Assembly: GCA_043806015.1 (NCBI GenBank) | Contig: JAZDHH010000015.1 | Coordinates: forward strand, 13,796-77,795 | Source of the DNA: Nanobdellota archaeon | GTDB taxonomy: Archaea; Nanobdellota; Nanobdellia; Woesearchaeales; JAHIVG01 | Direction: 5' to 3' | DNA length: 64,000 nt | Shown here: one piece after another, positions 5,301 to 59,128 of the stretch | Layout: each line of letters begins with the position of its first letter | How positions within the stretch are numbered: position 1 is the stretch's first letter | Translations under genes and position numbers: made by a program | The notes under the pieces: model-generated | What the model saw: only the letters and a program-made list of their open reading frames with translations | What the model was told of the DNA's origin: nothing | The model's database searches: none

Positions 5301-6244
5301 AAAAACAGGTTGAGCTGGAGGACCTCCCCGGCGTCGGAGCGGCAACAGCGGAGAAGCTCCGCGAGATCGGCTACACAACGGTCATGGGCGTCGCGGTCGC
5401 GTCGCCCGGCGAGCTGGTCGACGCTACTGGCGTGAGCGAATCTGTGGCCAGACGCATGATCCAAGCAGCGCGAGACAGCCTCGAGATGGGCTTCGAGAGC
5501 GCTGATTTGATCCTTGAGCGACGTCAGAAAGTCGAGAAGATCAAGACCGGCTGCTCTGCATTGGACAACCTCCTCGGCGGAGGGGTCGAGACCGCCGCCA
5601 TCACGGAAGCGTTCGGCGAGTTCGGCTCCGGCAAGACCCAGATCGGGCACCTGCTCGCCGTCAAGGCGCAGATGCTGACCCAGGAAAAGGATCCTATCGT
5701 CATCTACATCGACACCGAGAACACCTTCCGGCCGGAGCGCGTCATCGACTACGCGAAGGGCGTCGGCTTCGACCCGGAGATCGCCCTCAAGAACATCAAG
5801 GTCGCCAGGGCGTACAACTCAGACCACCAGATGCTCATCGCCGAGAAGGTCGAGGACCTCATCAAGAACAAGAACCTCAACATCAAGCTGGTGGTCGTCG
5901 ATTCCCTCACCGCGCACTTCCGCGCCGAGTTCATCGGGAGGGGGACATTGGCCGAGCGGCAGCAGAAGCTCAACAAGCACCTCCATACCCTGCTCAAGCT
6001 CGCGGACGTGTACAACCTCGCCGTCTACGTGACGAACCAGGTCATGGCCAAGCCGGACACGTTCTTCGGCGACCCGACGCAAGCGATCGGCGGCCACGTG
6101 GTGGCTCATGCATCCACCTTCCGCTTGTACCTGCGCAAGGGAAGGAAAGGGACGCGCGTCGCGAAGCTTGTTGACTCGCCGAACCTACCAGAAGGAGAGG
6201 CGAACTTCGTGGTCGAGAAGGACGGGATCAAGGACGTCAAGTAG
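5297..6244 (+). CDS. radA: DNA repair and recombination protein RadA
   Basis: N-terminal HhH domain (DLPGVGAATAEKLREIGY), Walker A GEFGSGKTQ and a RecA fold. Oligo-T terminator at 6258-6278. Confidence 0.95.
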   Translation: MKKQVELEDLPGVGAATAEKLREIGYTTVMGVAVASPGELVDATGVSESVARRMIQAARDSLEMGFESADLILERRQKVEKIKTGCSALDNLLGGGVETAAITEAFGEFGSGKTQIGHLLAVKAQMLTQEKDPIVIYIDTENTFRPERVIDYAKGVGFDPEIALKNIKVARAYNSDHQMLIAEKVEDLIKNKNLNIKLVVVDSLTAHFRAEFIGRGTLAERQQKLNKHLHTLLKLADVYNLAVYVTNQVMAKPDTFFGDPTQAIGGHVVAHASTFRLYLRKGRKGTRVAKLVDSPNLPEGEANFVVEKDGIKDVK

Positions 6245-7520
6245 ACTTTGCCAATTCCTGTTTTATTTTTTCTTTTTCGTGCCAGGCCCTTGTTTCGGCA
6301 GCACGAACCAGGAAGGCTGTCCAACGATCCCAATACTTTTCGCTGAGTTCCTCGTCCGAGTTTAATACGCGTCTCGGTTCCTGAAGATTTCCAGAAAGGA
6401 AAATAAATCCATCAGAAAGACCTGCACCCATAACGACGATGCCATGATAGGTGTCATGCCGGAGCCACCCATCCTCACGTGCCATGTCATAGGCGATGGG
6501 AGCCGAAGCGCCGGAATTGTTCCCCCTTCTTTCTACGCCATGAGTGTAGATGAAATCCGTAACAAGATCGTCATCCGCAGACTTGACAAAACCCTTATAC
6601 TGCTTCGCGGCGGACAACAAACCCGGCTTGTTCGGTTGATGGGGAACGACCTGAAAATTATTAGGCGTGATCAAGGGCAGACCTCGCTCTTCCAGAATCT
6701 TATTTGCTTCAACGATGACTAGCGGCATGCGGTCGCGAAGCGTGCGGACGATGAAAGGATGCACGTCATTCCCTTTCATGATGAAATATGGTCGGGGAAT
6801 ATGATCTAGTGTTTCAGGGACAGGAAATTCGCCTTCTCGGTAGCGGAACGGATTGACGAGGCCGGTCGGCATGAGGATGTGATGTCCCTTCCCCCCATAG
6901 GTAGCAGTATCTATGAAAAGGATCTCTGGAGCCTCACTATCTTCGGCGGAAAGGACAAAGGCCGCTGCGCCATCGGAGGACATCACCCTGAATGTCCGAT
7001 CATTGGCAAGAGGATAATAGGACATTGTATCTGTTGCTAGAACCAGGTTCACTTTAGATAGAAGAGATCTATACTCTGGCCCAAACCTCGCGAAATTCTC
7101 TATCTCTTGATGCTGGAGGTTGTCACGACCGACTTCAACCGCGTTGACAAAACCTGAACAGCCCATGATCACATCCAAGGCAGGCTTTCCTTCGATGCCG
7201 AGAAGGTGACTAACCAAGGCCGAGGCTGGCGGCTCAGTGTATTCCCCACTCACATTATGCGCAACATAGACATGGGAGACATCGTCTAACGTCTTTCCGG
7301 CATCCGCCAGCGCCTTTTCCGCAGCGACGGCCGCGAGCACATAGAGATTTTGATGAGGGCCAATCCACCCGCGCGTTTCCACACCAATGGTATTTTTTAT
7401 CCAATCAGCGGTTGTATTAAGGGCAACAATCCGCTCAAGGTGCGTGTTCGGAACTTGGTACTGAGCATCCGCCCTCCCTGTACCAATAACCCGAATAGGC
7501 CTTATAGGGGAAGAATACAT
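6237..7520 (-). CDS. thiolase-fold condensing enzyme, FabH (KAS III)/HMG-CoA synthase-like
   Basis: N-terminal VIGTGRADAQYQVPNTHLERIV and an active-site-like GCSGFVNA match the FabH family. At 427 aa it carries an extension beyond a typical FabH. Confidence 0.65.
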   Translation of the reverse strand: MYSSPIRPIRVIGTGRADAQYQVPNTHLERIVALNTTADWIKNTIGVETRGWIGPHQNLYVLAAVAAEKALADAGKTLDDVSHVYVAHNVSGEYTEPPASALVSHLLGIEGKPALDVIMGCSGFVNAVEVGRDNLQHQEIENFARFGPEYRSLLSKVNLVLATDTMSYYPLANDRTFRVMSSDGAAAFVLSAEDSEAPEILFIDTATYGGKGHHILMPTGLVNPFRYREGEFPVPETLDHIPRPYFIMKGNDVHPFIVRTLRDRMPLVIVEANKILEERGLPLITPNNFQVVPHQPNKPGLLSAAKQYKGFVKSADDDLVTDFIYTHGVERRGNNSGASAPIAYDMAREDGWLRHDTYHGIVVMGAGLSDGFIFLSGNLQEPRRVLNSDEELSEKYWDRWTAFLVRAAETRAWHEKEKIKQELAKST

Positions 7521-7596: not shown

Positions 7597-8103
7597 ATGC
7601 GCGCCTTCATCGCCATCGATTTGCCGCAGGAAATGCATCCCGCGCTGCAGCAGATTCAGGAGCAGATCAAGGCCTTCGGCTCGTTCTCCTTCCCGAGGAG
7701 CTTCCACCTCACGCTGTTCTTCCTGGGCGAAATCTCCGAACAGCAGAAAGAGGACGTCGTGAAAAAGCTGTCGACGGCCCGCTTCTCCCCGTTTTCCTTC
7801 ACCCTGTCGGAGATCGGCTTCTTCGACAAGAGGGTGGTGTGGGCGGGCATCCGGCCTGAGGAAGAGACCATCAAGCTGCAGAAGGCCATCTGCTCTGCCC
7901 TCGGCATGCGGGATGATCGCTTCCATCCGCACATCACGCTCGCGAGGATCAAGCAGGCGAAGCCTGGCCTCAAGGAAGCGTGCGAGGAGATGAGGCTGCC
8001 TTCTGAAGAAATCCGCATCGAGAAATTCACGCTTTATAAAAGCACGCTGCTCGCTGACGGGCCGAGATACGAGACGATTGCCAGCTTCGAAGGATTTAAA
8101 TAA
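7597..8103 (+). CDS. thpR: RNA 2',3'-cyclic phosphodiesterase (LigT/ThpR, 2H phosphoesterase)
   Basis: Two H-x-T/S-x motifs (HLTLFFLG and HITLARI). The length of ~168 aa is typical. Confidence 0.85.
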   Translation: MRAFIAIDLPQEMHPALQQIQEQIKAFGSFSFPRSFHLTLFFLGEISEQQKEDVVKKLSTARFSPFSFTLSEIGFFDKRVVWAGIRPEEETIKLQKAICSALGMRDDRFHPHITLARIKQAKPGLKEACEEMRLPSEEIRIEKFTLYKSTLLADGPRYETIASFEGFK

Positions 8104-8132
8104 GAAGACTTGGCATTGAAGGCTGGTGATGC

Positions 8133-8375
8133 ATGATGCATTTTGACACTTTCCTCCTTCGCGTTGGCGACCTGCTCAAGGAATACGCAGACAAGGAGAC
8201 CTTGCCCCAGGATTTCCGCCGAGAATGCCTCAAGGCGAGAGCATCCCTAGACAATGTCCGGCGACTTTCGGATAATGTGGGCGTCGGGCATATTCAGATC
8301 AGGAAACGTCGGAAATACTTAGGGTTGGGCGGGGAGACGTATCATGCTTCTCCGGAATTGGTGTTCCAGCACTGA
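8133..8375 (+). CDS. hypothetical small protein
   Basis: ORF with coding-like codon bias in its first two thirds. No recognisable domain. Confidence 0.3.
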   Translation: MMHFDTFLLRVGDLLKEYADKETLPQDFRRECLKARASLDNVRRLSDNVGVGHIQIRKRRKYLGLGGETYHASPELVFQH

Positions 8376-8423
8376 TGCTTCTTGGCAAAGCTTTAAAAAC
8401 CGCATTCTGCCTCTTTTCCTTGC

Positions 8424-8498
8424 GGGCCCGTAGCCTAGCCTGGATAAGGCGACAGCCTTCTAAGCTGTAGATCGGGGGTTCGAATCCCCCCGGGCTCA
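8424..8498 (+). tRNA. tRNA-Arg (anticodon TCT)
   Basis: Manual cloverleaf: acceptor GGGCCCG/CGGGCTC with one G-U, D stem GCCT/AGGC, anticodon stem ACAGC/GCTGT, loop CTTCTAA, T arm GGGGG-TTCGAAT-CCCCC, discriminator A. Confidence 0.85.
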
Positions 8499-8506
8499 TC
8501 AGCCCC

Positions 8507-8923
8507 ATGACCTGCAATTTTTGCCGGATCGCGAAGCACGTCAAGCCTGAACACATCGTCTATGAGGACAAGGCAGCGGTAGCCTTCCTGAGCGTGGAGC
8601 AGCTCTCGAAGGCCCATGTGCTTGTCATCCCGAAAAAGCACATCAGGGACATCTTCGACATCGACGAGAAAACTGCCGCCCATCTGATGCGAATCACGGT
8701 GAGGGTCGCGAAGGCTGTCAAGCGGACCGTTCGGCCGGCAGGCATCAACATCTACCAATGCAGCGGCAAAGCAGCTGACCAAGAGGTCATGCATTTCCAC
8801 CTGCACATCTTCCCCCGCTTCAAGGGCGACAACCTCTTTAATATCTATAACAACCATCATCCGAAATTTCGGAGGTCTTCCTACCTTGAAGCGATCGCCG
8901 AGAGGATTAGGAGATCGCTATGA
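8507..8923 (+). CDS. HIT (histidine triad) family hydrolase
   Basis: HFHLHIFPR histidine triad motif and ~138 aa length. Confidence 0.85.
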   Translation: MTCNFCRIAKHVKPEHIVYEDKAAVAFLSVEQLSKAHVLVIPKKHIRDIFDIDEKTAAHLMRITVRVAKAVKRTVRPAGINIYQCSGKAADQEVMHFHLHIFPRFKGDNLFNIYNNHHPKFRRSSYLEAIAERIRRSL

Positions 8924-9555
8924 TCCGCGCAATCTATTTCGACGGGTTCAAGACGCTGTTCAGATGGAAGAAGCCTGATCCCGAAGACATGATCCTCGAG
9001 CATTTCCGGCTGTCGTTGTCCTACACTGAGGTCCAACAGAGGGTCATGACAGTCCATTGCGATGCTTTTGGCCACGACATCGAGCGGTTCGAACTGAGAG
9101 CTGCACAAAACCTAGGATTGGATGGCTCGCAGAGGCAAGAGCTCAGCAGGCTGCTTCATGAAGCAGGCAGGAGGGCCGCGCTTGAGGGAGACGCGCAGCA
9201 CGTCATCGAGGAGCTGAAGGGCCGCGGCTATCGCCTCGGCCTCATCACCGACATCTGGCCGCACCCTATCGCAGATGGCATCATCCCCACATCGTTCATC
9301 CGCTTGTTTGACGTCTTCTCGCCGTCATATGCCGTAGGGAAAGTGAAGCCTGATCCGGAGCGTTTCCTGGCCGCGCTCCACGGAGTGAATCCGCACGAGG
9401 CGGCGATGATAGGGGACTCCATTGAGATGGACATCATGCCCGCAAAAAGCCTGGGCATGACCACCGTGCTCTTCGACCCCAGGCATGAGCATCGGAATCC
9501 GCCAGCGGATTACCAGGTCCCCTCGCTTGCCGACGTGCTGAAGATATTTCCATAA
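8920..9555 (+). CDS. HAD-superfamily hydrolase
   Basis: N-terminal IYFDGFKTLF motif I-like sequence and a C-terminal GDS…D motif. The start overlaps the HIT gene stop. Confidence 0.7.
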   Translation: MIRAIYFDGFKTLFRWKKPDPEDMILEHFRLSLSYTEVQQRVMTVHCDAFGHDIERFELRAAQNLGLDGSQRQELSRLLHEAGRRAALEGDAQHVIEELKGRGYRLGLITDIWPHPIADGIIPTSFIRLFDVFSPSYAVGKVKPDPERFLAALHGVNPHEAAMIGDSIEMDIMPAKSLGMTTVLFDPRHEHRNPPADYQVPSLADVLKIFP

Positions 9556-9588
9556 CGTTTAAAAAGATGGGGGAATGCCTTCCCCTTA

Positions 9589-9765
9589 TTGCGGGGGTGG
9601 CCTAGACGACAGCTTTTTACCCTCTCGGGTAAAAACCGGGGAAATACCGGCTGGCCTCTTCGTGTTTCCCAAATTCACTTGGGCAATGGGGGTTTCGGCT
9701 CTGCCTCAAGCCCCCAAAATCTTTATAAGCCAACAAAAAACAAGCATTCATATGCGGGGGTGGCC
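9589..9765 (+). repeat. 13-bp direct repeats (TGCGGGGGTGGCC at 9589-9601 and 9753-9765) flanking copy A of a conserved structured ~110-nt element (core 9610-9715)
   Basis: Exact 13-mer duplication of the 5' end of the tRNA-Cys gene. The enclosed element shares two covarying hairpins with the element at 49676-49785. Confidence 0.6.
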
Positions 9766-9826
9766 AAGCGGCTAAGGCGGCCGCCTGCAGAGCGGCTATT
9801 CGGGGGTTCGAATCCCTCCCCCCGCT
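9754..9826 (+). tRNA. tRNA-Cys (anticodon GCA)
   Basis: Manual cloverleaf: acceptor GCGGGGG/CCCCCGC, D stem GCC/GGC, anticodon stem GCCGC/GCGGC, loop CTGCAGA, T arm GGGGG-TTCGAAT-CCCTC. A T-rich tract follows. Confidence 0.85.
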
Positions 9827-9833
9827 CTTCTTA

Positions 9834-10403
9834 TTAAGAAACAGACTTGCACTTGGCCAGCAGGCTCTTGACTCTAGCGACCGGGAAGCCGATCACGTTT
9901 TCCTTGGATCCTCTGATGCCCGCGATAAGGTCCGCACCGCGGCCTTGGATGGCGAAGGCTCCGGCCTTGTCCAAGGGCTCTCCGGTGACGACATAATCTT
10001 GGATTGTTGCGTTGCTCAATCGCTTGAACCTGACCTCGGTCACTTCAGCTGCCTTCATCACGCGCTTGGTCTCACAATTGATCAGCGCGATGCCGGAGAT
10101 GACATGGACAGTCCTTCCGGAGAGGGATTCCAGCATGGCGACCGCCTGCGCTTTCGTCTTCGGCTTACCAAGTTTATTCTTCCCAAGGACCACGAACGTG
10201 TCCACGCCGATGACTACGCCTTCTCGTTTTGTGCGGGCCACGGCCTTTGCCTTGCCGACAGCCAGATGCATAGCGAGCGCTCTTGGCGGCAGTGGCAGCG
10301 TGAGATCCTCGCTGAAATCACCCGGCTCGACAGAAAAGGGGAGATTAAGCTTCTTTGCAAGAGCTATCCTGCGCGGAGAACCAGAAGCAAGAATGATCTT
10401 CAT
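9834..10403 (-). CDS. maf: Maf-like nucleoside triphosphate pyrophosphatase
   Basis: MKIILASGSPRRIALAKKLNL… matches the Maf N-terminus. The start overlaps the upstream gene's stop (ATGA). Confidence 0.8.
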   Translation of the reverse strand: MKIILASGSPRRIALAKKLNLPFSVEPGDFSEDLTLPLPPRALAMHLAVGKAKAVARTKREGVVIGVDTFVVLGKNKLGKPKTKAQAVAMLESLSGRTVHVISGIALINCETKRVMKAAEVTEVRFKRLSNATIQDYVVTGEPLDKAGAFAIQGRGADLIAGIRGSKENVIGFPVARVKSLLAKCKSVS

Positions 10404-11176
10404 GCCGGCTCGCAATAGAACCGCTCGAAGGCGGCGAGCTGCTTCAGGTTGCCCTGGAAGGTGAAGGTGATGTCGCTGTCCCGCGCTGCCTCGGCCTCGA
10501 GGGGGGTCCACATGACCATGCTGCTCGCTCCCCGCACACAGAGGAGGGCATAGATATCTCGGCAGCTGAGTATCCTCTCGCAGGTGATGGCCGACCATTC
10601 CGCATATGTCTCCGGATGAAGAGACATGAGCCGGGTGTCGTTCCGCTTGGTCATGATTTCAACATGGAAGGCCTCTGAGGTTATCGGCACGTTGATGCGC
10701 AGGTTGAGCGTCGGGAACTCCCTGACCCTGGCGACGTATTTGCTCCGGATGATCCAGAAAGGATCCAAATACGCGGATTTATACCGGACGCTGTCAACGA
10801 TGTACAGGCTCTGGTTGTCGGCGAGGTATCTCACGTGGTAGTCGAACGCGCCGTTGAGCTCAGGCAGCTGCTCGGCATAGGCCTCGAGGATGTCATCCCG
10901 ATACCAGCCGGAGAAGTTGTGGTAAAGCATGGCCGGCGGGGTGATGTCCTCTTCGGGCTGCACCTGAGGCAGGGGGAAGATGTCGATGATGGTGGCAGGC
11001 TCGGAGGGCTGTCCTGAAGGCGTCAGGTTCGTCGCGTTGCCCGGCTGCGGAGGCGTCAGGTTCGTCAGATCGTTCACGGGAAGCGGTGCCTTCGGCCGCA
11101 GGAAGAAATAATAGCCCGCGCCAGCGGCAAGCAGCAATACTGCTGAGGCGATAATAATGAGCATCAGCTTTTTCAT
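10400..11176 (-). CDS. secreted or membrane-anchored hypothetical protein with N-glycosylation sequons
   Basis: N-terminal signal/TM segment and NLT/NAT/NLT sequons. Translationally coupled to maf. Confidence 0.5.
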   Translation of the reverse strand: MKKLMLIIIASAVLLLAAGAGYYFFLRPKAPLPVNDLTNLTPPQPGNATNLTPSGQPSEPATIIDIFPLPQVQPEEDITPPAMLYHNFSGWYRDDILEAYAEQLPELNGAFDYHVRYLADNQSLYIVDSVRYKSAYLDPFWIIRSKYVARVREFPTLNLRINVPITSEAFHVEIMTKRNDTRLMSLHPETYAEWSAITCERILSCRDIYALLCVRGASSMVMWTPLEAEAARDSDITFTFQGNLKQLAAFERFYCEPA

Positions 11177-11254
11177 GAAGCGAGAATGCGGTTTTTTTCT
11201 TTATAAATCTATCTGAACCAAACATTTTTATACCTTCCCTGAGCACTAGGAAGC

Positions 11255-11983
11255 ATGGGGGCCCGCATCCTGGTCGATGAGCAAGGAAGGCAGTTCTACG
11301 TGAAAAACCCGAAGGAGGACTTCCATACCCAGTACGGCTACGTGAGCGCCGAGGACCTGAAAAAGCAGGCCGGGGCGGACGTGAGCACCAACACCGGCAA
11401 GGGGTTCACCCTGCTCAAGGCCTCCTTCATCGACGGCTACATGAAGATAGCGCGCGCCCCCCAGATCATCCCTCGCAAGGACATCGCGCTCATCATCGCA
11501 GAGACCGGCGTCGGCAAGGACAGCATCGTGGTCGATGCGGGCACAGGCTCAGGCGCGCTGGCAATCTCGCTCAGCCGCATCGCGAAACAAGTCGTGAGCT
11601 ACGAGCTCCGCGAGGACTTCGCCAAGGTGGCGGAGAAGAACAAGGCATTCCTGGCCGTGGACAACCTGACCATCAAGCAGAAGGACGTCTACGGAGGCAT
11701 CGACGAGAAAGGCGTCGACCTCATCACCCTCGACCTCCCCGAGCCCTGGAAAGCGCTCCCGGCGGCGGCCGAAAGCCTCGCTGTCGGCGGCTTCCTCGTC
11801 TCCTTTTCCCCGACCATCCCGCAAGTCATGGACTTCGTCAAGGCATTGGCGCCGCATTTCGTGCATCTCAAGACTTCCGAGCTCATCGAACGCGACTGGG
11901 ATGTCGCGGAGCGGAAGGTGCGGCCGAGGAGCATGACCATCGGCCACAGCGGATTCCTGACATTCGCAAGAAGACTGAGGTGA
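11255..11983 (+). CDS. trmI: tRNA (adenine57/58-N1)-methyltransferase TrmI (Gcd14 family)
   Basis: SAM-MTase motif VVDAGTGSGALAISL and TrmI-like N-terminal domain. TATA-like elements at 11207-11245 in the divergent promoter region. Confidence 0.85.
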   Translation: MGARILVDEQGRQFYVKNPKEDFHTQYGYVSAEDLKKQAGADVSTNTGKGFTLLKASFIDGYMKIARAPQIIPRKDIALIIAETGVGKDSIVVDAGTGSGALAISLSRIAKQVVSYELREDFAKVAEKNKAFLAVDNLTIKQKDVYGGIDEKGVDLITLDLPEPWKALPAAAESLAVGGFLVSFSPTIPQVMDFVKALAPHFVHLKTSELIERDWDVAERKVRPRSMTIGHSGFLTFARRLR

Positions 11984-12216
11984 GGCACATGCAGGCATAC
12001 GTGTTGGTGGCGCTGGAGAGCGCGACAGAACAGCAGGTCGTCAAGAAGCTGGAAAAGCTGAAGGAGATCAAGGAGCTGCACATCCTGTTCGGCGAGTGGG
12101 ACCTCATCGCCGAGGTCGATGTGACCAGTTCTGAGCACCTGGGCGATTTCGTGATGCAGTACATCCGGTCTTTGCCCGAGGTCAAGCTCACCAGCACCAT
12201 GATCGTCGCCAAGTAG
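11980..12216 (+). CDS. stand-alone AsnC/Lrp-type RAM (ligand-binding) domain protein
   Basis: 78-aa βαββαβ-type sequence (…YVLVALESATEQQVVKKLEKLKEIKELHILFGEWDLIAEV…). Confidence 0.65.
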   Translation: MRHMQAYVLVALESATEQQVVKKLEKLKEIKELHILFGEWDLIAEVDVTSSEHLGDFVMQYIRSLPEVKLTSTMIVAK

Positions 12217-12780
12217 ATGCTCAAGCGAGAGCTCCGCGTCCTCGGCATAGACGACACGCCTTTCGACAAGCATCGCGACAAGACAGCGACGCTCATCGGC
12301 ATCGTCTACCGGGGCGGCTCCTTCCCTGATGGACTGCTCTCCGCCACCGTCCGAGTCGACGGGACAGACGGGACGGCGGTCATCGCGCGGATGGTCAACC
12401 AGAGCAAGTTCAAGGAGCAGCTCCGCGCCATCCTCCTGAAAGGCATCGCTGTCGCGGGCTTCAACCTCATCGACATCAGGGCGCTCTCCCGGAGGACAAG
12501 GCTGCCGGCCATCGTGGTGATGAGACATATCCCGAAGAGCGATGAGATGGCCTCTGCCCTCAATAAGCTCGGCCTTTCATCTCAGGCCGCCATCCTAAAC
12601 CGGGTCCCGAAGATCCATCGCGCCGGGAAGCTGCTGTTCCAATGCGCGGGATGCTCGCAGCAGCATGCCGCCGAGGTCATCGCGCTCACGACCACGCACG
12701 GCAACCTGCCGGAACCGCTGCGCGTCGCACACCTCATCGCCAGCGGCATCACGCTGGGCGAGAGCAGGGGGAAGGCCTAG
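12217..12780 (+). CDS. DUF99/UPF0215 family protein
   Basis: N-terminal …LRVLGIDDTPF… is characteristic of archaeal DUF99 proteins. Confidence 0.55.
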   Translation: MLKRELRVLGIDDTPFDKHRDKTATLIGIVYRGGSFPDGLLSATVRVDGTDGTAVIARMVNQSKFKEQLRAILLKGIAVAGFNLIDIRALSRRTRLPAIVVMRHIPKSDEMASALNKLGLSSQAAILNRVPKIHRAGKLLFQCAGCSQQHAAEVIALTTTHGNLPEPLRVAHLIASGITLGESRGKA

Positions 12781-28226: not shown

Positions 28227-28265
28227 TAAATGGATGGAAATGCATAGAAAACTGGGATAGAAAAC

Positions 28266-28620
28266 GGGTGTCACCATAGTGTCACTTTGGTGACATAGAC
28301 GAGGAAAATGGCGTTTTGCCCCGGGATTCCGCAAGCAGGCTTCCGCCTGTTTTCACGGATATCTCTCTTCTCCGTCGGAGAATCCGTTCACGCCCGCGAA
28401 AAATGACTTCCTGCCTCAGAAGGATGCGCGTCACACCCGTGTCACTTTGGTGACATAGACGACAAAAGGCCTTTTTGGTGACACGAGTGACGTGACACGT
28501 CACCGATGACACGCTCCCGGTGACAACGCCTTTTATCGACGAGAAATAGAAAATGCTACGCGAGAGCGGAAAAGAGCCACCGACGATGTCACCACGGTGT
28601 CACTTTGGTGACATAGACGC
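28266..28620. repeat. three copies of a ~33-bp repeat GTCACnnnnnGTGTCACTTTGGTGACATAGACG (cores at 28279-28301, 28439-28461, 28597-28619), spaced ~159 bp apart, plus extra GTGAC/GTCAC half-sites at 28478-28525
   Basis: Read directly from the sequence. The core contains the perfect palindrome TGTCAC-TTTG-GTGACA. The region is non-coding and lies between convergent gene ends (28226 and 28600). Confidence 0.75.
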
Positions 28621-29106
28621 TGTTGAAAAACGGCGCAGGGCCATAAAAACCTTGTTCGCGAGCGCCCGCGGCGTCGCGCGCGTGCTGTCCGCGACCAGTA
28701 CGCGATGCTTCCCAACCCTTGCTTCATGCCCACACACATCGAGCAGTTCACAATCCAGGTTTTCCTGGATTTTTTCAGGGCTGTATCTACGGGCTGAGAG
28801 GCGCTTGCGGAGGATATCGGTCTGGCAGCGCAGGAGGATGCAGGCGTCAAAGAAATGGGGGGGCAAGGTCTGGCTCAGATGTCCTTCAACGATGTAGCCG
28901 CCTTTGGGCAGGTTCGCCCTGAGGCTTTTCTCCAGCGCCTTGGGATCGATGACCATGCTCTCTCGCTTGGAGTCATAGGCTTCCGCGAGCCTGTGGCGCT
29001 TGATGTATTGGGTGAGATGGATGACTTTCGTCCCTAGCAAAAGTGAGAGCTCGTCAGCCAGTGAGCTCTTGCCGACCCCGGGCGTGCCGGTTATCGCGAG
29101 GCGCAT
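28600..29106 (-). CDS. Fap7/AK6-like P-loop kinase (putative adenylate kinase involved in small-subunit rRNA maturation)
   Basis: MRLAITGTPGVGKSS Walker A, ~168 aa, NMP-kinase-like. Confidence 0.7.
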   Translation of the reverse strand: MRLAITGTPGVGKSSLADELSLLLGTKVIHLTQYIKRHRLAEAYDSKRESMVIDPKALEKSLRANLPKGGYIVEGHLSQTLPPHFFDACILLRCQTDILRKRLSARRYSPEKIQENLDCELLDVCGHEARVGKHRVLVADSTRATPRALANKVFMALRRFSTASMSPK

Positions 29107-47392: not shown

Positions 47393-47493
47393 AGGCCCCG
47401 CCTCCGTAGCATAGTAGCCATTGCGGCGGACTTGTATATTGCCGGAGAAATCCGCAGGTCGAGGGTGCAACTCCCTCCGGAGGCTCTTTGCCC

Positions 47494-47928: not shown

Positions 47929-48612
47929 ATGCGAATGATTCTCATCGGACCGCCGGGCGCCGGAAAAGGCACCCAGGTAACGCTAATCCAAAACTATTAT
48001 CAGAAGCATTTCGACCAGAGCATGCCGCAGATCTCCACGGGAGACGAGCTCAGGGCCGCGGTCAGAAATCACACCGCGGAGGGCATGAAAGCGAAAAGCT
48101 ATATGGATGCTGGTCGGCTCGTGCCTGACGAAATCATAATCCCCATTCTTATGGAACGAATCCTTCAGCCGGACTGCGCGTCCGGCTACATCCTTGACGG
48201 CTTTCCCCGAAACCTTGCCCAGGCAGAGAAATTGGACTCCGTCTCAGACCGCGTGGGGACGATAGAGGCCGTTACCTACATCGATGTTCCCGATACTGAA
48301 ATTGTCCGGCGGCTCGTCAATCGACGGGTTTGCCCCCAATGCAAGCGCGGATACAACCTCCTGTTCCAAAAACCCCGTAGCCCAGGCATCTGCGATGAAG
48401 ACGGGACGCCCCTCGTGCAGCGTGACGACGACAACGAAGGGACAATCAGGAATCGGCTGGCCGTGTTCCATCACCAGACGCAACCCCTCCTCGACTTTTA
48501 CAAAAAAAGGGGGATCCTGTACCGCATCGATGGGGCACCATCTGCCCATGTTGTGAGCACTGCTCTCGAGGCTTTGTTGCAACAATTATCGCCTAGCGAA
48601 AAAGCGCCCTGA
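47929..48612 (+). CDS. adk: adenylate kinase (long form with zinc-binding LID)
   Basis: GPPGAGKGTQ P-loop and CPQC…C…D LID motif. Confidence 0.9.
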   Translation: MRMILIGPPGAGKGTQVTLIQNYYQKHFDQSMPQISTGDELRAAVRNHTAEGMKAKSYMDAGRLVPDEIIIPILMERILQPDCASGYILDGFPRNLAQAEKLDSVSDRVGTIEAVTYIDVPDTEIVRRLVNRRVCPQCKRGYNLLFQKPRSPGICDEDGTPLVQRDDDNEGTIRNRLAVFHHQTQPLLDFYKKRGILYRIDGAPSAHVVSTALEALLQQLSPSEKAP

Positions 48613-49537
48613 CCGCGATCGTGGCATAGCTCCCCTTCGGCAAGGAAAAGCTGACTGTCCTTTTCTGGAAACCGGGGTTCAGGTCGTCCGGCTCGGCTGA
48701 TGAGACGGCAAGATCCCCGAGAGGGACAAACGCTGGACGAAAATAACCTTCAGCGCTCAGGCCGTGGAGCTGCCGGATCACAAAATCCCGCTCAGAGATG
48801 CCCTCTTGCGCAAGAAGTGGTGGGATGCGCTCGTCCTCGATCCCGAAACCCGGGACGGGCAATGCGCATTCGTCCACCACTTCCTTCGGGAAAGCCAACT
48901 CCCCTGTCGGGAACTCCACAAGATCATGCAGGCCCTTCCTGATCTCTGCATCGAGAAGGCGGTTGAAGAGCAGACTTTGATAGGAGTGAACCATTATGCC
49001 CAATAGGTTGGTGCGTGCGGAGAGATGCCTCAAGGGATCGTTTCCTTCATAACCGAGCATTCTGGCTGCCCCGGAAAAGTCTTTGGTGACGAGCAGCTTG
49101 CCTATGAGATGATTTTTTCCGGCGACACCGAACCGCTGCTCCCCGAAGTAGTTCGGCATCTTGGAAAGAGCCACGGGGCCATGGTCGAGCTTGCGGACAA
49201 CAAGGGAAAAGCGGTTGCCTTCAAGCTCTCCGAGGGAAAGGCGCTCCTCACGGGAGCCGAGGAAGCTCAGCGAAAGCTGCGGAAGCTCGAGATCGCTGTG
49301 CGGCCCGTTATATAGCGACACGAACTGTGAGGTCACTGCTCGCTTGTCCTTTAGCCCTGCGAGATTGAACCATTTTGCAGGCTTATGCAAAGCTTCTGCA
49401 AGCCGGGTGATGGCCTCGTCATCCGTGAGGTCTCTCTTGGTCAGCCGATAGAAGGCGTAGGGCCCCTGCCCCTTCACATCATGATGGGCGATTTCCTCGA
49501 CCACGAAATCCTCGGGAAGGCGCTTGACCTCAAACAT
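48593..49537 (-). CDS. truD: tRNA pseudouridine synthase TruD/Pus7 family
   Basis: MFEVKRLPEDFVVEE N-terminus and NYFGEQRFG motif. The ORF-track extension to 49753 overlaps the tRNA and was rejected. Confidence 0.8.
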   Translation of the reverse strand: MFEVKRLPEDFVVEEIAHHDVKGQGPYAFYRLTKRDLTDDEAITRLAEALHKPAKWFNLAGLKDKRAVTSQFVSLYNGPHSDLELPQLSLSFLGSREERLSLGELEGNRFSLVVRKLDHGPVALSKMPNYFGEQRFGVAGKNHLIGKLLVTKDFSGAARMLGYEGNDPLRHLSARTNLLGIMVHSYQSLLFNRLLDAEIRKGLHDLVEFPTGELAFPKEVVDECALPVPGFGIEDERIPPLLAQEGISERDFVIRQLHGLSAEGYFRPAFVPLGDLAVSSAEPDDLNPGFQKRTVSFSLPKGSYATIAVRALFR

Positions 49538-49590
49538 GGCAGGGGTAAGGTAAAAAGGTTTAAAAAGCTGCCGCAATAGCCAGGTATCAC

Positions 49591-49835
49591 GAGCCTGTAG
49601 CGCAGCCTGGTAACCTCGGCGAAGGTTGGGCAAACAGCGCGAGTGCCTCCTAAGCACTAGGTCGGGGGTTCGAACCAGCTTTTTCCCCTCGCGGGGAAAA
49701 ACCGGGGAAATACCTGATTGACCCAGGTATTCTTCCCAGAAAAGAAAGGTCAATGGGGGTTTCGGCGTTCCGCCTCAAGCCCCCCAGTTGCTGCAAGGCA
49801 ACATCCCAGAAGCTCCGAAAGTCCCCCCAGGCTCG
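49591..49835 (+). tRNA. tRNA-Arg (anticodon CCT) with two putative non-canonical introns (D-loop ~49615-49636; T-loop 49676-49822)
   Basis: Acceptor GAGCCTG pairs with CAGGCTC 230 nt downstream. D stem GCGC/GCGC, anticodon stem AGTGC/GCACT, loop CTCCTAA, T stem GGGGG (49664-49668) with CCCCC (49823-49827), discriminator G then CTTTTTTC. Confidence 0.55.
49676..49785 (+). ncRNA. copy B of a conserved structured element (core of the putative T-loop intron)
   Basis: Shares CAGCTTTTT-hairpin-AAAAACCGGGGAAATACC and CAATGGGGGTTTCGGC…GCCTCAAGCCCCC with 9610-9715. Compensatory changes: ACCC/GGGT versus CCCC/GGGG, and GGC/GCC versus GGCG/CGCC. Confidence 0.5.
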
Positions 49836-49846
49836 CTTTTTTCACC

Positions 49847-58585: not shown

Positions 58586-59128
58586 ATGGGCAAGAAAGAA
58601 ATCCAAGTGGTCAACATCGTTGTCAGCACGAATCTCAAGCATGATATCCCGCTCGAAAAGATGGCTGCGACGCTCAGCAACACGGAATACAACCCCGAGC
58701 AGTTCCCCGGCCTGGTCATCCGCATCAAGGATCCGAAGACCAGCGCGCTGATCTTCTCCTCGGGCAAGATCGTCTGCACCGGCGCCCGCTCCATGGATAA
58801 GGTCGAGGAGAGCATCAAGAAGATCATCAAGAGTCTCGAGAAGATCAACGTCAAGATCACCATCAAGCCGGATATCAAGATCCAGAACATCGTGGCTTCC
58901 GGAACCGTCGGCATGGACCTCAACCTCAACGTGCTCGCCATGAAGCTCGACAACACGGAGTACGAGCCAGAGCAGTTCCCCGGCCTGGTCTACAAATTGC
59001 CTGAGGCAAAAGCGACCTTCCTGCTGTTCAGCAACGGCAAGGTTGTCTGCACCGGCACCAAGAGCGAAGAGGAAGTGCACAAGGCACTCGATAAGCTGAT
59101 CGAGAACCTGAAAAAAGTCCTCAAGTAA
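58586..59128 (+). CDS. tbp: TATA-box binding protein
   Basis: Two direct TBP repeats (…NIVVSTNLKHDIPLEKMA… and …NIVASGTVGMDLNLNVLA…). TATA-like elements at 58441-58563. Confidence 0.95.
   Translation: MGKKEIQVVNIVVSTNLKHDIPLEKMAATLSNTEYNPEQFPGLVIRIKDPKTSALIFSSGKIVCTGARSMDKVEESIKKIIKSLEKINVKITIKPDIKIQNIVASGTVGMDLNLNVLAMKLDNTEYEPEQFPGLVYKLPEAKATFLLFSNGKVVCTGTKSEEEVHKALDKLIENLKKVLK

Follow-up and report, generated by a model that had tools for sequence, protein, structure and literature searches.

The DNA analysed here is a 64,000-nt stretch of contig JAZDHH010000015.1 (the window, in whose numbering all positions are given unless stated otherwise), a chromosomal segment of a deep-branching DPANN ('Nanoarchaeota') archaeon. 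Two of its tRNA loci, tRNA-Arg(CCT) and tRNA-Cys(GCA), carry copies of the same structured module: copy B lies inside an intron in the T-loop of tRNA-Arg(CCT), and copy A lies between two direct repeats of the 5' end of tRNA-Cys(GCA). We read the module, with a probability of roughly one half, as a lineage-specific family of paralogous tRNA introns of the bulge-helix-bulge (BHB) type, with copy A as a presumed intron, by-passed or fossil, in the leader of tRNA-Cys.

The tRNA-Arg(CCT) gene at 49.6 kb, which is missed by both ARAGORN and the Rfam tRNA model, is composed of three exons separated by a 23-nt intron in the D-loop and a 147-nt intron in the T-loop (Table 1). In a scan for the BHB pattern (helix, 3-nt bulge, 4-bp helix, 3-nt bulge, helix) the T-loop intron is the top solution, its score of 19 (H = 4, h = 5, h' = 7) being far ahead of all others. 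The outer helix h is the T-stem (GGGGG/CCCCC), the central helix H is UUCG/CGAA and the inner helix h' is AGCUUU/GAAGCU, and cuts after the second nucleotide of both bulges (AA↓C and AG↓U) restore the 7-nt T-loop UUCGAAU. In-silico excision of both introns yields a 76-nt tRNA-Arg(CCT), which ARAGORN then reports. Copy B is the whole interior of a canonical BHB intron at position 59/60. The preliminary description of this DNA had considered an intron-derived element and was right in that respect, without having recognised the intron itself. With its hBHBh' motif, its position in the T-loop beside a D-loop intron and a cloverleaf that is restored by excision, the copy B intron resembles the introns of the multi-intron tRNAs of Thermoproteales, Micrarchaeota/ARMAN and other DPANN archaea. 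At 147 nt it is longer than most non-canonical archaeal tRNA introns.

The core of copy A is homologous to the core of copy B. Alignment of 9603-9753 with 49669-49822 gives a column identity of 83%, with identical runs of 9, 18, 16 and 13 nt separated by stretches at roughly 30-50% identity; the identical blocks are CAGCTTTTT, AAAAACCGGGGAAATACC (9631/49697), CAATGGGGGTTTCGGC (9684/49751) and GCCTCAAGCCCCC. Weaker homology runs on to an AAGC at 9745/49813, which forms a helix with the GCUU at the start of the module. A covariance model of the two copies, run unfiltered over the window, detects no further site, the next match scoring 11 bits. Alignment and model both support the earlier claim that the element is common to two tRNA loci, and they extend it from about 110 nt to a unit of 136-139 nt. 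The identity is patchy, the three longest runs together covering 47 of the 139 columns (p = 5e-4 from 100,000 shuffles of the columns), and this block-wise conservation argues, from the sequences at hand, for constraint somewhere on the path between the copies. If the family has further members, copy A may be a recent copy of an unseen one, and the constraint need not lie on copy A itself. Possible reasons for a conserved interior are a fold through which a long intron presents its BHB, stability of the RNA, a function in trans and recognition for mobility; autonomous folding could possibly also keep the 147-nt insert from disturbing the T-arm. A conserved peptide was discarded: the open reading frames (ORFs) at 9589-9837 and from 49718 cross tRNA sequence, and the identity of the blocks is one of nucleotides, without the pattern that codons would leave.

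The consensus fold consists of a closing helix, a 9-bp stem-loop 1, a stem-loop 2 with a conserved base and a variable top, a long stem-loop 3 with a small internal loop, and weak extra helices. The copies differ in stem-loop 1 by A-U versus C-G and in stem-loop 3 by GGC/GCC versus GGCG/CGCC. None of the 32 predicted pairs is broken; 28 are invariant and three are changed on both sides, which is suggestive of covariation between the copies. Both cores fold better than their shuffles (Table 1), and so do their reverse strands (z = -2.4 for A and -2.8 for B). Folding energy therefore does not assign the strand, which was taken instead from the tRNA context and the G·U pairs. The 5' strand of stem-loop 1 is in both copies a T5 tract (9614-9618 and 49680-49684). 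Archaeal RNA polymerase terminates at oligo-T, so that these tracts could cause a premature stop within the intron of tRNA-Arg and just past the 5' fragment of tRNA-Cys. A T6 tract (49838-49843) is found at the 3' end of tRNA-Arg(CCT).

Copy A lies upstream of a complete, intron-less tRNA-Cys(GCA), and is itself preceded by a stump of the same gene, nucleotides -1 to +12. Stump and gene start are exact copies of one 13-mer (TGCGGGGGTGGCC) which occurs exactly twice in the window. The repeat was reported previously as exact, with its second copy at the start of an intact tRNA-Cys, and is so; its first copy begins at 9590 and not at 9589. The preliminary description had proposed to look for further copies of the element at other tRNA genes: within the window the covariance model gives none, and no other tRNA has a duplicated end. 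Upstream of the stump is a TATA-like box, P1, and the same box is found at -32 of tRNA-Arg(TCT) (8392) and of tRNA-Arg(CCT) (49559). Given this tRNA-type box and spacing, the stump appears to be the original start of the tRNA-Cys gene. The second box, P2, is in the tail of copy A and is absent from the aligned part of copy B.

The layout of 7 nt, core and 7 nt is common to both copies. In copy A the BHB is degenerate: UAGA and UUCA (9747-9750) form three of four pairs, only 1 bp is left of the outer helix, and the inner helix is shifted; the BHB scan of this copy gives no outstanding candidate. If one mismatch and one indel are allowed (…GGCC-U-AG-A-CG versus …GGCC-A-AG-CG), the likeness of the stump to tRNA-Cys reaches nucleotide 18 at 9608, exactly where the 5' cut is predicted by analogy with copy B; such a lengthening of the repeat, from 13 nt to about 18, is suggestive. 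Copy A, with no convincing BHB and with a complete tRNA-Cys downstream, does not qualify as a spliceable tRNA intron.

Table 1. Features of the tRNA-Cys(GCA) and tRNA-Arg(CCT) loci in the window, and the tRNA-Arg(CCT) genes of relatives (the latter in the numbering of their own loci).
Feature	Position	Strand	Remarks
TATA-like box P1 (TTTAAAAA)	9558..9565	+	33 nt upstream of stump G+1; within GTTTAAAAAG
Direct-repeat copy 1, tRNA-Cys stump (nt -1 to +12)	9590..9602	+	exact 13-mer TGCGGGGGTGGCC
Left 7-nt spacer UAGACGA	9603..9609	+	by position, central helix H and 5' bulge of copy B
Copy A core	9610..9745	+	169.7 bits; z = -2.8
Parts of copy A core			closing helix GCUU/AAGC; stem-loop 1 9614-9635; stem-loop 2 9639-9670; stem-loop 3 9688-9715; A-rich tail with conserved CAACA
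TATA-like box P2 (TTTATAAG)	9722..9729	+	copy A tail, 32 nt upstream of tRNA-Cys G+1
Right 7-nt spacer AUUCAUA	9746..9752	+	by position, complement of H and 3' bulge of copy B
Direct-repeat copy 2 (tRNA-Cys nt -1 to +12)	9753..9765	+	exact 13-mer
tRNA-Cys(GCA), complete, intron-less	9754..9826	+	ARAGORN; Rfam tRNA 61.6 bits
TATA-like box of tRNA-Arg(CCT)	49559..49566	+	at -32; conserved in relative's locus L141
tRNA-Arg(CCT), two introns, previously unannotated	49591..49835	+	exons 49591-49610, 49634-49674, 49822-49835
23-nt D-loop intron, relaxed HBh' motif	49611..49633	+	H = GCCU/GGGC; inner helix h' = 5 bp
147-nt T-loop intron at 59/60, canonical hBHBh'	49675..49821	+	BHB scan; minimum free energy (MFE) fold
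Copy B core	49676..49814	+	175.4 bits; z = -4.0; includes closing helix
Parts of copy B core			stem-loop 1 49680-49701; stem-loop 2 49705-49737; stem-loop 3 49755-49784; small hairpin 49787-49802
tRNA-Arg(CCT) of relative L141	~5365-5487	-	missed by ARAGORN
tRNA-Arg(CCT) of relative L142	~5450-5582	-	missed by ARAGORN
tRNA-Arg(CCT) of relative L157	~6365-6467	-	missed by ARAGORN

Copy A could nevertheless still be at work, if a transcript starting from P1 at the stump lost a 163-nt intron that ends with the duplicated 5' exon. Such splicing would use a relaxed BHB in which the palindrome GGCC (9599-9602) pairs with its duplicate (9762-9765), with the bulges UA↓G and AA↓G, and would give a tRNA-Cys with U13 instead of A13. 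The repeat does end exactly with GGCC, which is self-complementary, and at both copies the next three nucleotides are NAG; in-register splicing would place a Watson-Crick U13-A22 pair in the D-stem where the downstream gene has an A13·A22 mismatch. P1 has the box and spacing of a canonical tRNA promoter, and in the MFE fold of 9591-9827 the 3' acceptor strand is paired with the GCGGGGG upstream. DPANN archaea are known for disrupted tRNA genes and for splicing endonucleases with broad substrate specificity, some of which cleave relaxed motifs (PMC5829648, PMC3239211). Still, the BHB scan gives this arrangement only H = 4, h = 0 and h' = 2, and does not list it among the best candidates; any repeat with a 4-nt palindrome automatically yields such a helix; and the complete tRNA-Cys downstream, with its own TATA box, makes splicing unnecessary. 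We consider a working intron at this locus quite unlikely.

The tRNA-Arg(CCT) locus could be compared with orthologous loci, in which the gene order GatD-GatE-glycosyltransferase-unknown-[tRNA]-TruD-Adk is kept: L141 and L142, which are identical at the locus and represent one relative, and L157, the other. Their GatE proteins are 51% (L141/L142) and 50% (L157) identical to that of the window. The Maf, GatE and HAD proteins of the window match database proteins labelled 'Nanoarchaeota archaeon' at 100% identity (GatE is MFH1133905.1), and after this match the next best GatE has an identity of only 51%, which indicates that the host lineage has been sampled once. The tRNA-Arg(CCT) of L141/L142 has three introns, one in the D-loop, one of 20 nt in the anticodon loop and one of 35 nt at 59/60; that of L157 has a 16-nt anticodon-loop intron and a 12-nt intron at 59/60. 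The D-loop intron of the window gene is at the same site as that of L141 and related to it in sequence, and the neighbours of the 3' splice site at 59/60 are conserved as CGAAAG↓T in the window, CGGAAG↓T in L141/L142 and CGAAAA↓T in L157. The copy B intron differs from the 12- and 35-nt introns at the orthologous site in its length and in its conserved multi-hairpin interior. No significant homology was detected between the 35-nt intron and the module (p = 0.12-0.5), and 165 kb of sequence from the relatives' loci contain no match to the covariance model. Since the intron at 59/60 is common to three lineages and the module is found only in the host, the site would predate the split of the lineages and the module would be a lineage-specific filling: judged from these sequences, the intron site is old and the 136-139-nt module lineage-specific. 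The comparison also adds a correctly annotated multi-intron tRNA-Arg(CCT), which standard tRNA finders had missed in three DPANN lineages.

Absence of the module from the orthologous intron in two relatives would also fit the insertion of a non-autonomous DNA transposon, similar to a miniature inverted-repeat transposable element, into tRNA genes, with the 13-bp repeat as target-site duplication and with copy B surviving because it landed in the pre-existing intron at 59/60. The preliminary description favoured a mobile element of this kind, copy A being flanked by an exact 13-bp direct repeat, and two of the four tRNA genes in the 64 kb are affected. The claim did not hold up in detail. Copy B has no flanking repeat, the nearest resemblance (TTCGAAC versus TCCGAAA) being explained by the BHB helix and the palindromic T-loop; at copy A seven non-repeated nucleotides on each side separate the repeat from the conserved core; there are no terminal inverted repeats beyond the closing helix of 4-6 bp; and among the proteins of the 64 kb a Pfam search identified neither a transposase nor an integrase nor a reverse transcriptase. 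Nor does transposition predict that the left edge of the repeat falls on the 5' end of the mature tRNA, as it does. A transposon is accordingly given only a small probability.

In the reading which we prefer, that of a paralogous intron family, the splicing endonuclease would cut the copy B intron at AA↓C and AG↓U, the exons would be ligated and the 147-nt intron would be released, presumably as a linear or circular RNA. Copy A would be an intron copy that came to lie in the D-arm region of tRNA-Cys, after the original promoter and the first 12, perhaps 18, nucleotides. The 5' exon would then have been duplicated onto the 3' side of copy A, either when the copy was inserted or through incomplete replacement by an intron-less gene copy, so that the putative intron was by-passed. 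The tRNA-Cys would be made from the complete downstream gene, transcribed from P2 in the tail of the element or by read-through from P1 with cleavage by RNase P, and copy A, for which splicing would no longer be needed, would have become leader or fossil sequence. Splicing, circularisation, the promoter used, the origin of the duplication and the cause of the hairpin conservation are all points that we infer. The similarity between the intervening sequences of tRNA-Arg(CCT) and tRNA-Cys(GCA) is significant, as in a paralogous family; copy A is the member that is not a spliceable intron.

The data do not decide between three routes to the duplication: a staggered cut at insertion, incomplete replacement of an intron-containing gene by an intron-less one, or recombination resembling that at attachment (att) sites. 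A start of the repeat at -1/+1 would be accounted for by the replacement route, because an intron-less replacing copy would begin at mature +1. A comparable arrangement is known at the tRNA-Thr(GGU) locus of Caldiarchaeum, where a 5' tRNA fragment upstream of a reconstituted gene has been linked to intron gain (Sugahara et al. 2012, PMC3293823). There, as here, a 5' tRNA fragment forms a direct repeat upstream of a complete gene with foreign sequence in between; unlike the Caldiarchaeum insert, which is 1.8 kb long and encodes a recombinase, the insert described in this work is of 150 nt, non-coding, homologous to the intron of another tRNA and has no recombinase nearby.

The 13-bp repeat may also be an att-type scar, left when an integrative plasmid or virus carrying a 5' fragment of tRNA-Cys and an intron-like sequence recombined site-specifically at the gene and was later mostly deleted. 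Elements that integrate into archaeal tRNA genes leave one end of the tRNA duplicated in direct orientation and the gene restored, such integration has been proposed to give rise to new introns and tRNA fragments (PMC3293823), and the succession of 5' fragment, insert and intact tRNA has the same architecture on a smaller scale. This explanation is very unlikely in our view. Only 150 nt separate the repeats, both flanks are occupied by housekeeping genes, the window contains neither an integrase gene nor any other gene of a mobile element, and the intron-like geometry of the insert is left without explanation. The repeat is also short, 13 bp being little for an archaeal att core.

Similar introns at different positions of different tRNA genes have been described in Thermoproteales as intron transposition (PMC4090602, PMC4390854), including near-identical introns in different tRNA genes (Fujishima et al. 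2010, as cited in PMC4090602 and PMC4390854), and the mechanism is reviewed there as still unknown. The two copies of the module resemble these cases in being homologous intervening sequences in tRNA-Arg(CCT) and tRNA-Cys(GCA) at different tRNA positions. They differ in that the host is a DPANN archaeon and in that one copy is unspliceable and flanked by a duplicated 5' exon, an arrangement not reported beside an intron copy in this literature on intron transposition (PMC4090602, PMC4390854). A further parallel are split tRNAs, in which leader sequences homologous to introns are found next to promoter-bearing tRNA fragments (PMC4390854). Copy A is likewise an intron-like sequence outside the mature tRNA body and beside a tRNA fragment with its own promoter, but in distinction to split tRNAs no trans-splicing partner is needed, as the complete tRNA-Cys follows directly.

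Several points weigh against the interpretation of copy A as a by-passed intron. At least 56 block positions of copy A are identical to copy B despite its decayed BHB, and the interior of a dead fossil should have decayed as well; either copy A is young and derived from an unseen third member, or the interior has a function that is independent of splicing. The observed covariation is matched by 60 of 500 shuffles and, with only two copies, is not significant. The compensatory changes described earlier are correct insofar as all stem differences keep pairing, and the selection on RNA structure deduced from them is not statistically demonstrable from two sequences. The extension of the repeat to about 18 nt is likewise not significant alone. 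In the relatives no tRNA-Cys locus was recovered, homologues of the neighbouring gene Maf being found without synteny and without a tRNA-Cys. Finally, neither the splicing endonuclease (EndA) nor the ligase gene (RtcB) is among the ORFs of the window.

A bolder reading, which we hold to be unlikely, makes the module a self-contained structured RNA or DNA unit that spreads into the tRNA genes of this DPANN lineage, at their BHB sites or within them. If it were so, the tRNA-Cys locus would show an intron-sized unit caught while inserting after the D-arm with duplication of the 5' exon; palindromic ends (GGCC at this locus, UUCGAA in the T-loop) would supply the central BHB helix, and the hairpins would be recognised by a mobility machinery or be needed for the function of a stable circular RNA. 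The locus would then hold the first direct trace of how archaeal tRNA introns are acquired at the level of DNA. More generally, on the evidence of two copies in one genome fragment, the locus looks like a rare footprint of tRNA intron gain or loss, and the combination of an intron with a homologous copy that has a duplicated 5' exon and two promoters makes the pathway of gain or loss testable.

The conserved blocks may also be the functional surface of a non-coding RNA, which would be excised from the tRNA-Arg intron, possibly as a circle, and freed from the tRNA-Cys leader by RNase P, the tRNA genes lending it promoters and processing enzymes. The block-wise conservation persists in the copy which lost its BHB, pairing is preserved in all stem differences, stem-loop 3 keeps a G·U pair on the plus strand, and strong tRNA promoters precede both copies, which lie on the same strand as the tRNAs. 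Guide RNAs may be housed in long archaeal tRNA introns, an example being the C/D box small RNA in the intron of tRNA-Trp, and by analogy this may be counted in favour of such a function. The module is similar to the tRNA-Trp example in its long, conserved and structured interior, and dissimilar in having neither C/D nor H/ACA boxes nor a match in Rfam. At the gathering score Rfam recognises only three tRNAs in the window and neither copy, and at E<=10 nothing credible was obtained on either copy, including C/D and H/ACA RNAs, hammerhead and RNase P, in agreement with the motif inspection made previously. By eye, CUGA is present only in copy B, and the CAACA is near a 3-bp helix with no pseudouridylation pocket or kink-turn.

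Searches for relatives of the module in sequence collections were made with exact short blocks. In 596 Gb of GTDB genomes the pattern CCGGGGAAA-N30-60-GGGGGTTTCGG gave 64 matches, all by chance (bacterial genes and 16S rRNA) and none with the other blocks; scans of viral contigs (IMG/VR) with the 18-mer and the 16-mer gave chance matches only, and a scan of JGI metagenomes with the 18-mer gave 58 chance matches with no hairpin context. As these scans needed a perfect match to 18-20 specified bases in collections from which the source genome is absent, they exclude close homologues in those collections and not diverged ones. The further homologues anticipated in the preliminary description were thus found neither in the window beyond copies A and B, nor in the 165 kb of the relatives, nor by exact match, which by the criterion of that description makes a widespread functional RNA less likely. 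The module is missing from the orthologous introns of two relatives and is therefore not needed in related organisms, and the T5 tract close to the 5' end of the module would terminate archaeal transcription in part. The module seems unlikely, on balance, to be a functional RNA.

One Rfam similarity was examined and rejected. Stem-loop 1 with the following 15 nt (49677-49713 and 9611-9647) resembles the family CRISPR-DR57 with 24.6 bits in copy B and 14.5 bits in copy A, against a gathering score of 39. There is no array among the direct repeats of the window, and the likeness is probably due to a similar hairpin and A-run.

The gene content of the window is of the housekeeping type and comprises RadA, an RPA-like protein, ABCE1, glutamine synthetase, primase, GlmS, a class I aminoacyl-tRNA synthetase, S2 and MCM, as well as GatD/E, TruD, adenylate kinase, TrmI, LigT, HIT and Maf. 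Genes for RNA processing and modification are clustered around the tRNA genes, at 7597-12780 and 48593-49537; they encode a LigT 2'-5' RNA ligase-like protein, a HIT protein, a TrmI/GCD14 methyltransferase, an Endo_dU protein (PF01949) and TruD. Directly upstream of the tRNA-Cys promoter is a gene for a HAD-family hydrolase (8920-9555), for which a search in a collection of 5.8 billion proteins at E<=1e-10 returned only the protein itself.

A further tRNA gene, tRNA-Thr(TGT) at 47400-47486 (plus strand), has a canonical 15-nt intron in the anticodon loop. Its counterpart in the relative, on the syntenic contig L141 (9046-9118, minus strand), is intron-less and 73 nt long. Intron content varies gene by gene between the host and the relative lineages.

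Two other regions with direct repeats were noted. At 58669-59059 there are internal direct repeats, 273 nt apart and 86% and 74% identical, a pattern that suggests a plus-strand gene with two tandem homologous domains; the minus-strand ORF checked at the same position has no match in Pfam. The intergenic region of about 400 nt at 28227-28640 is flanked by an ORF of unknown function and an AAA_18 kinase-like gene, with ArsR-type helix-turn-helix genes on either side. It contains three direct copies of GTCAC-N5-GTGTCACTTTGGTGACATAGACG, spaced by 160 and 158 nt, and a cluster of GTGAC/GTCAC dyads at 28477-28525, and from their sequence and spacing the repeats look like iterated protein-binding sites, either origin-like or operator-like.

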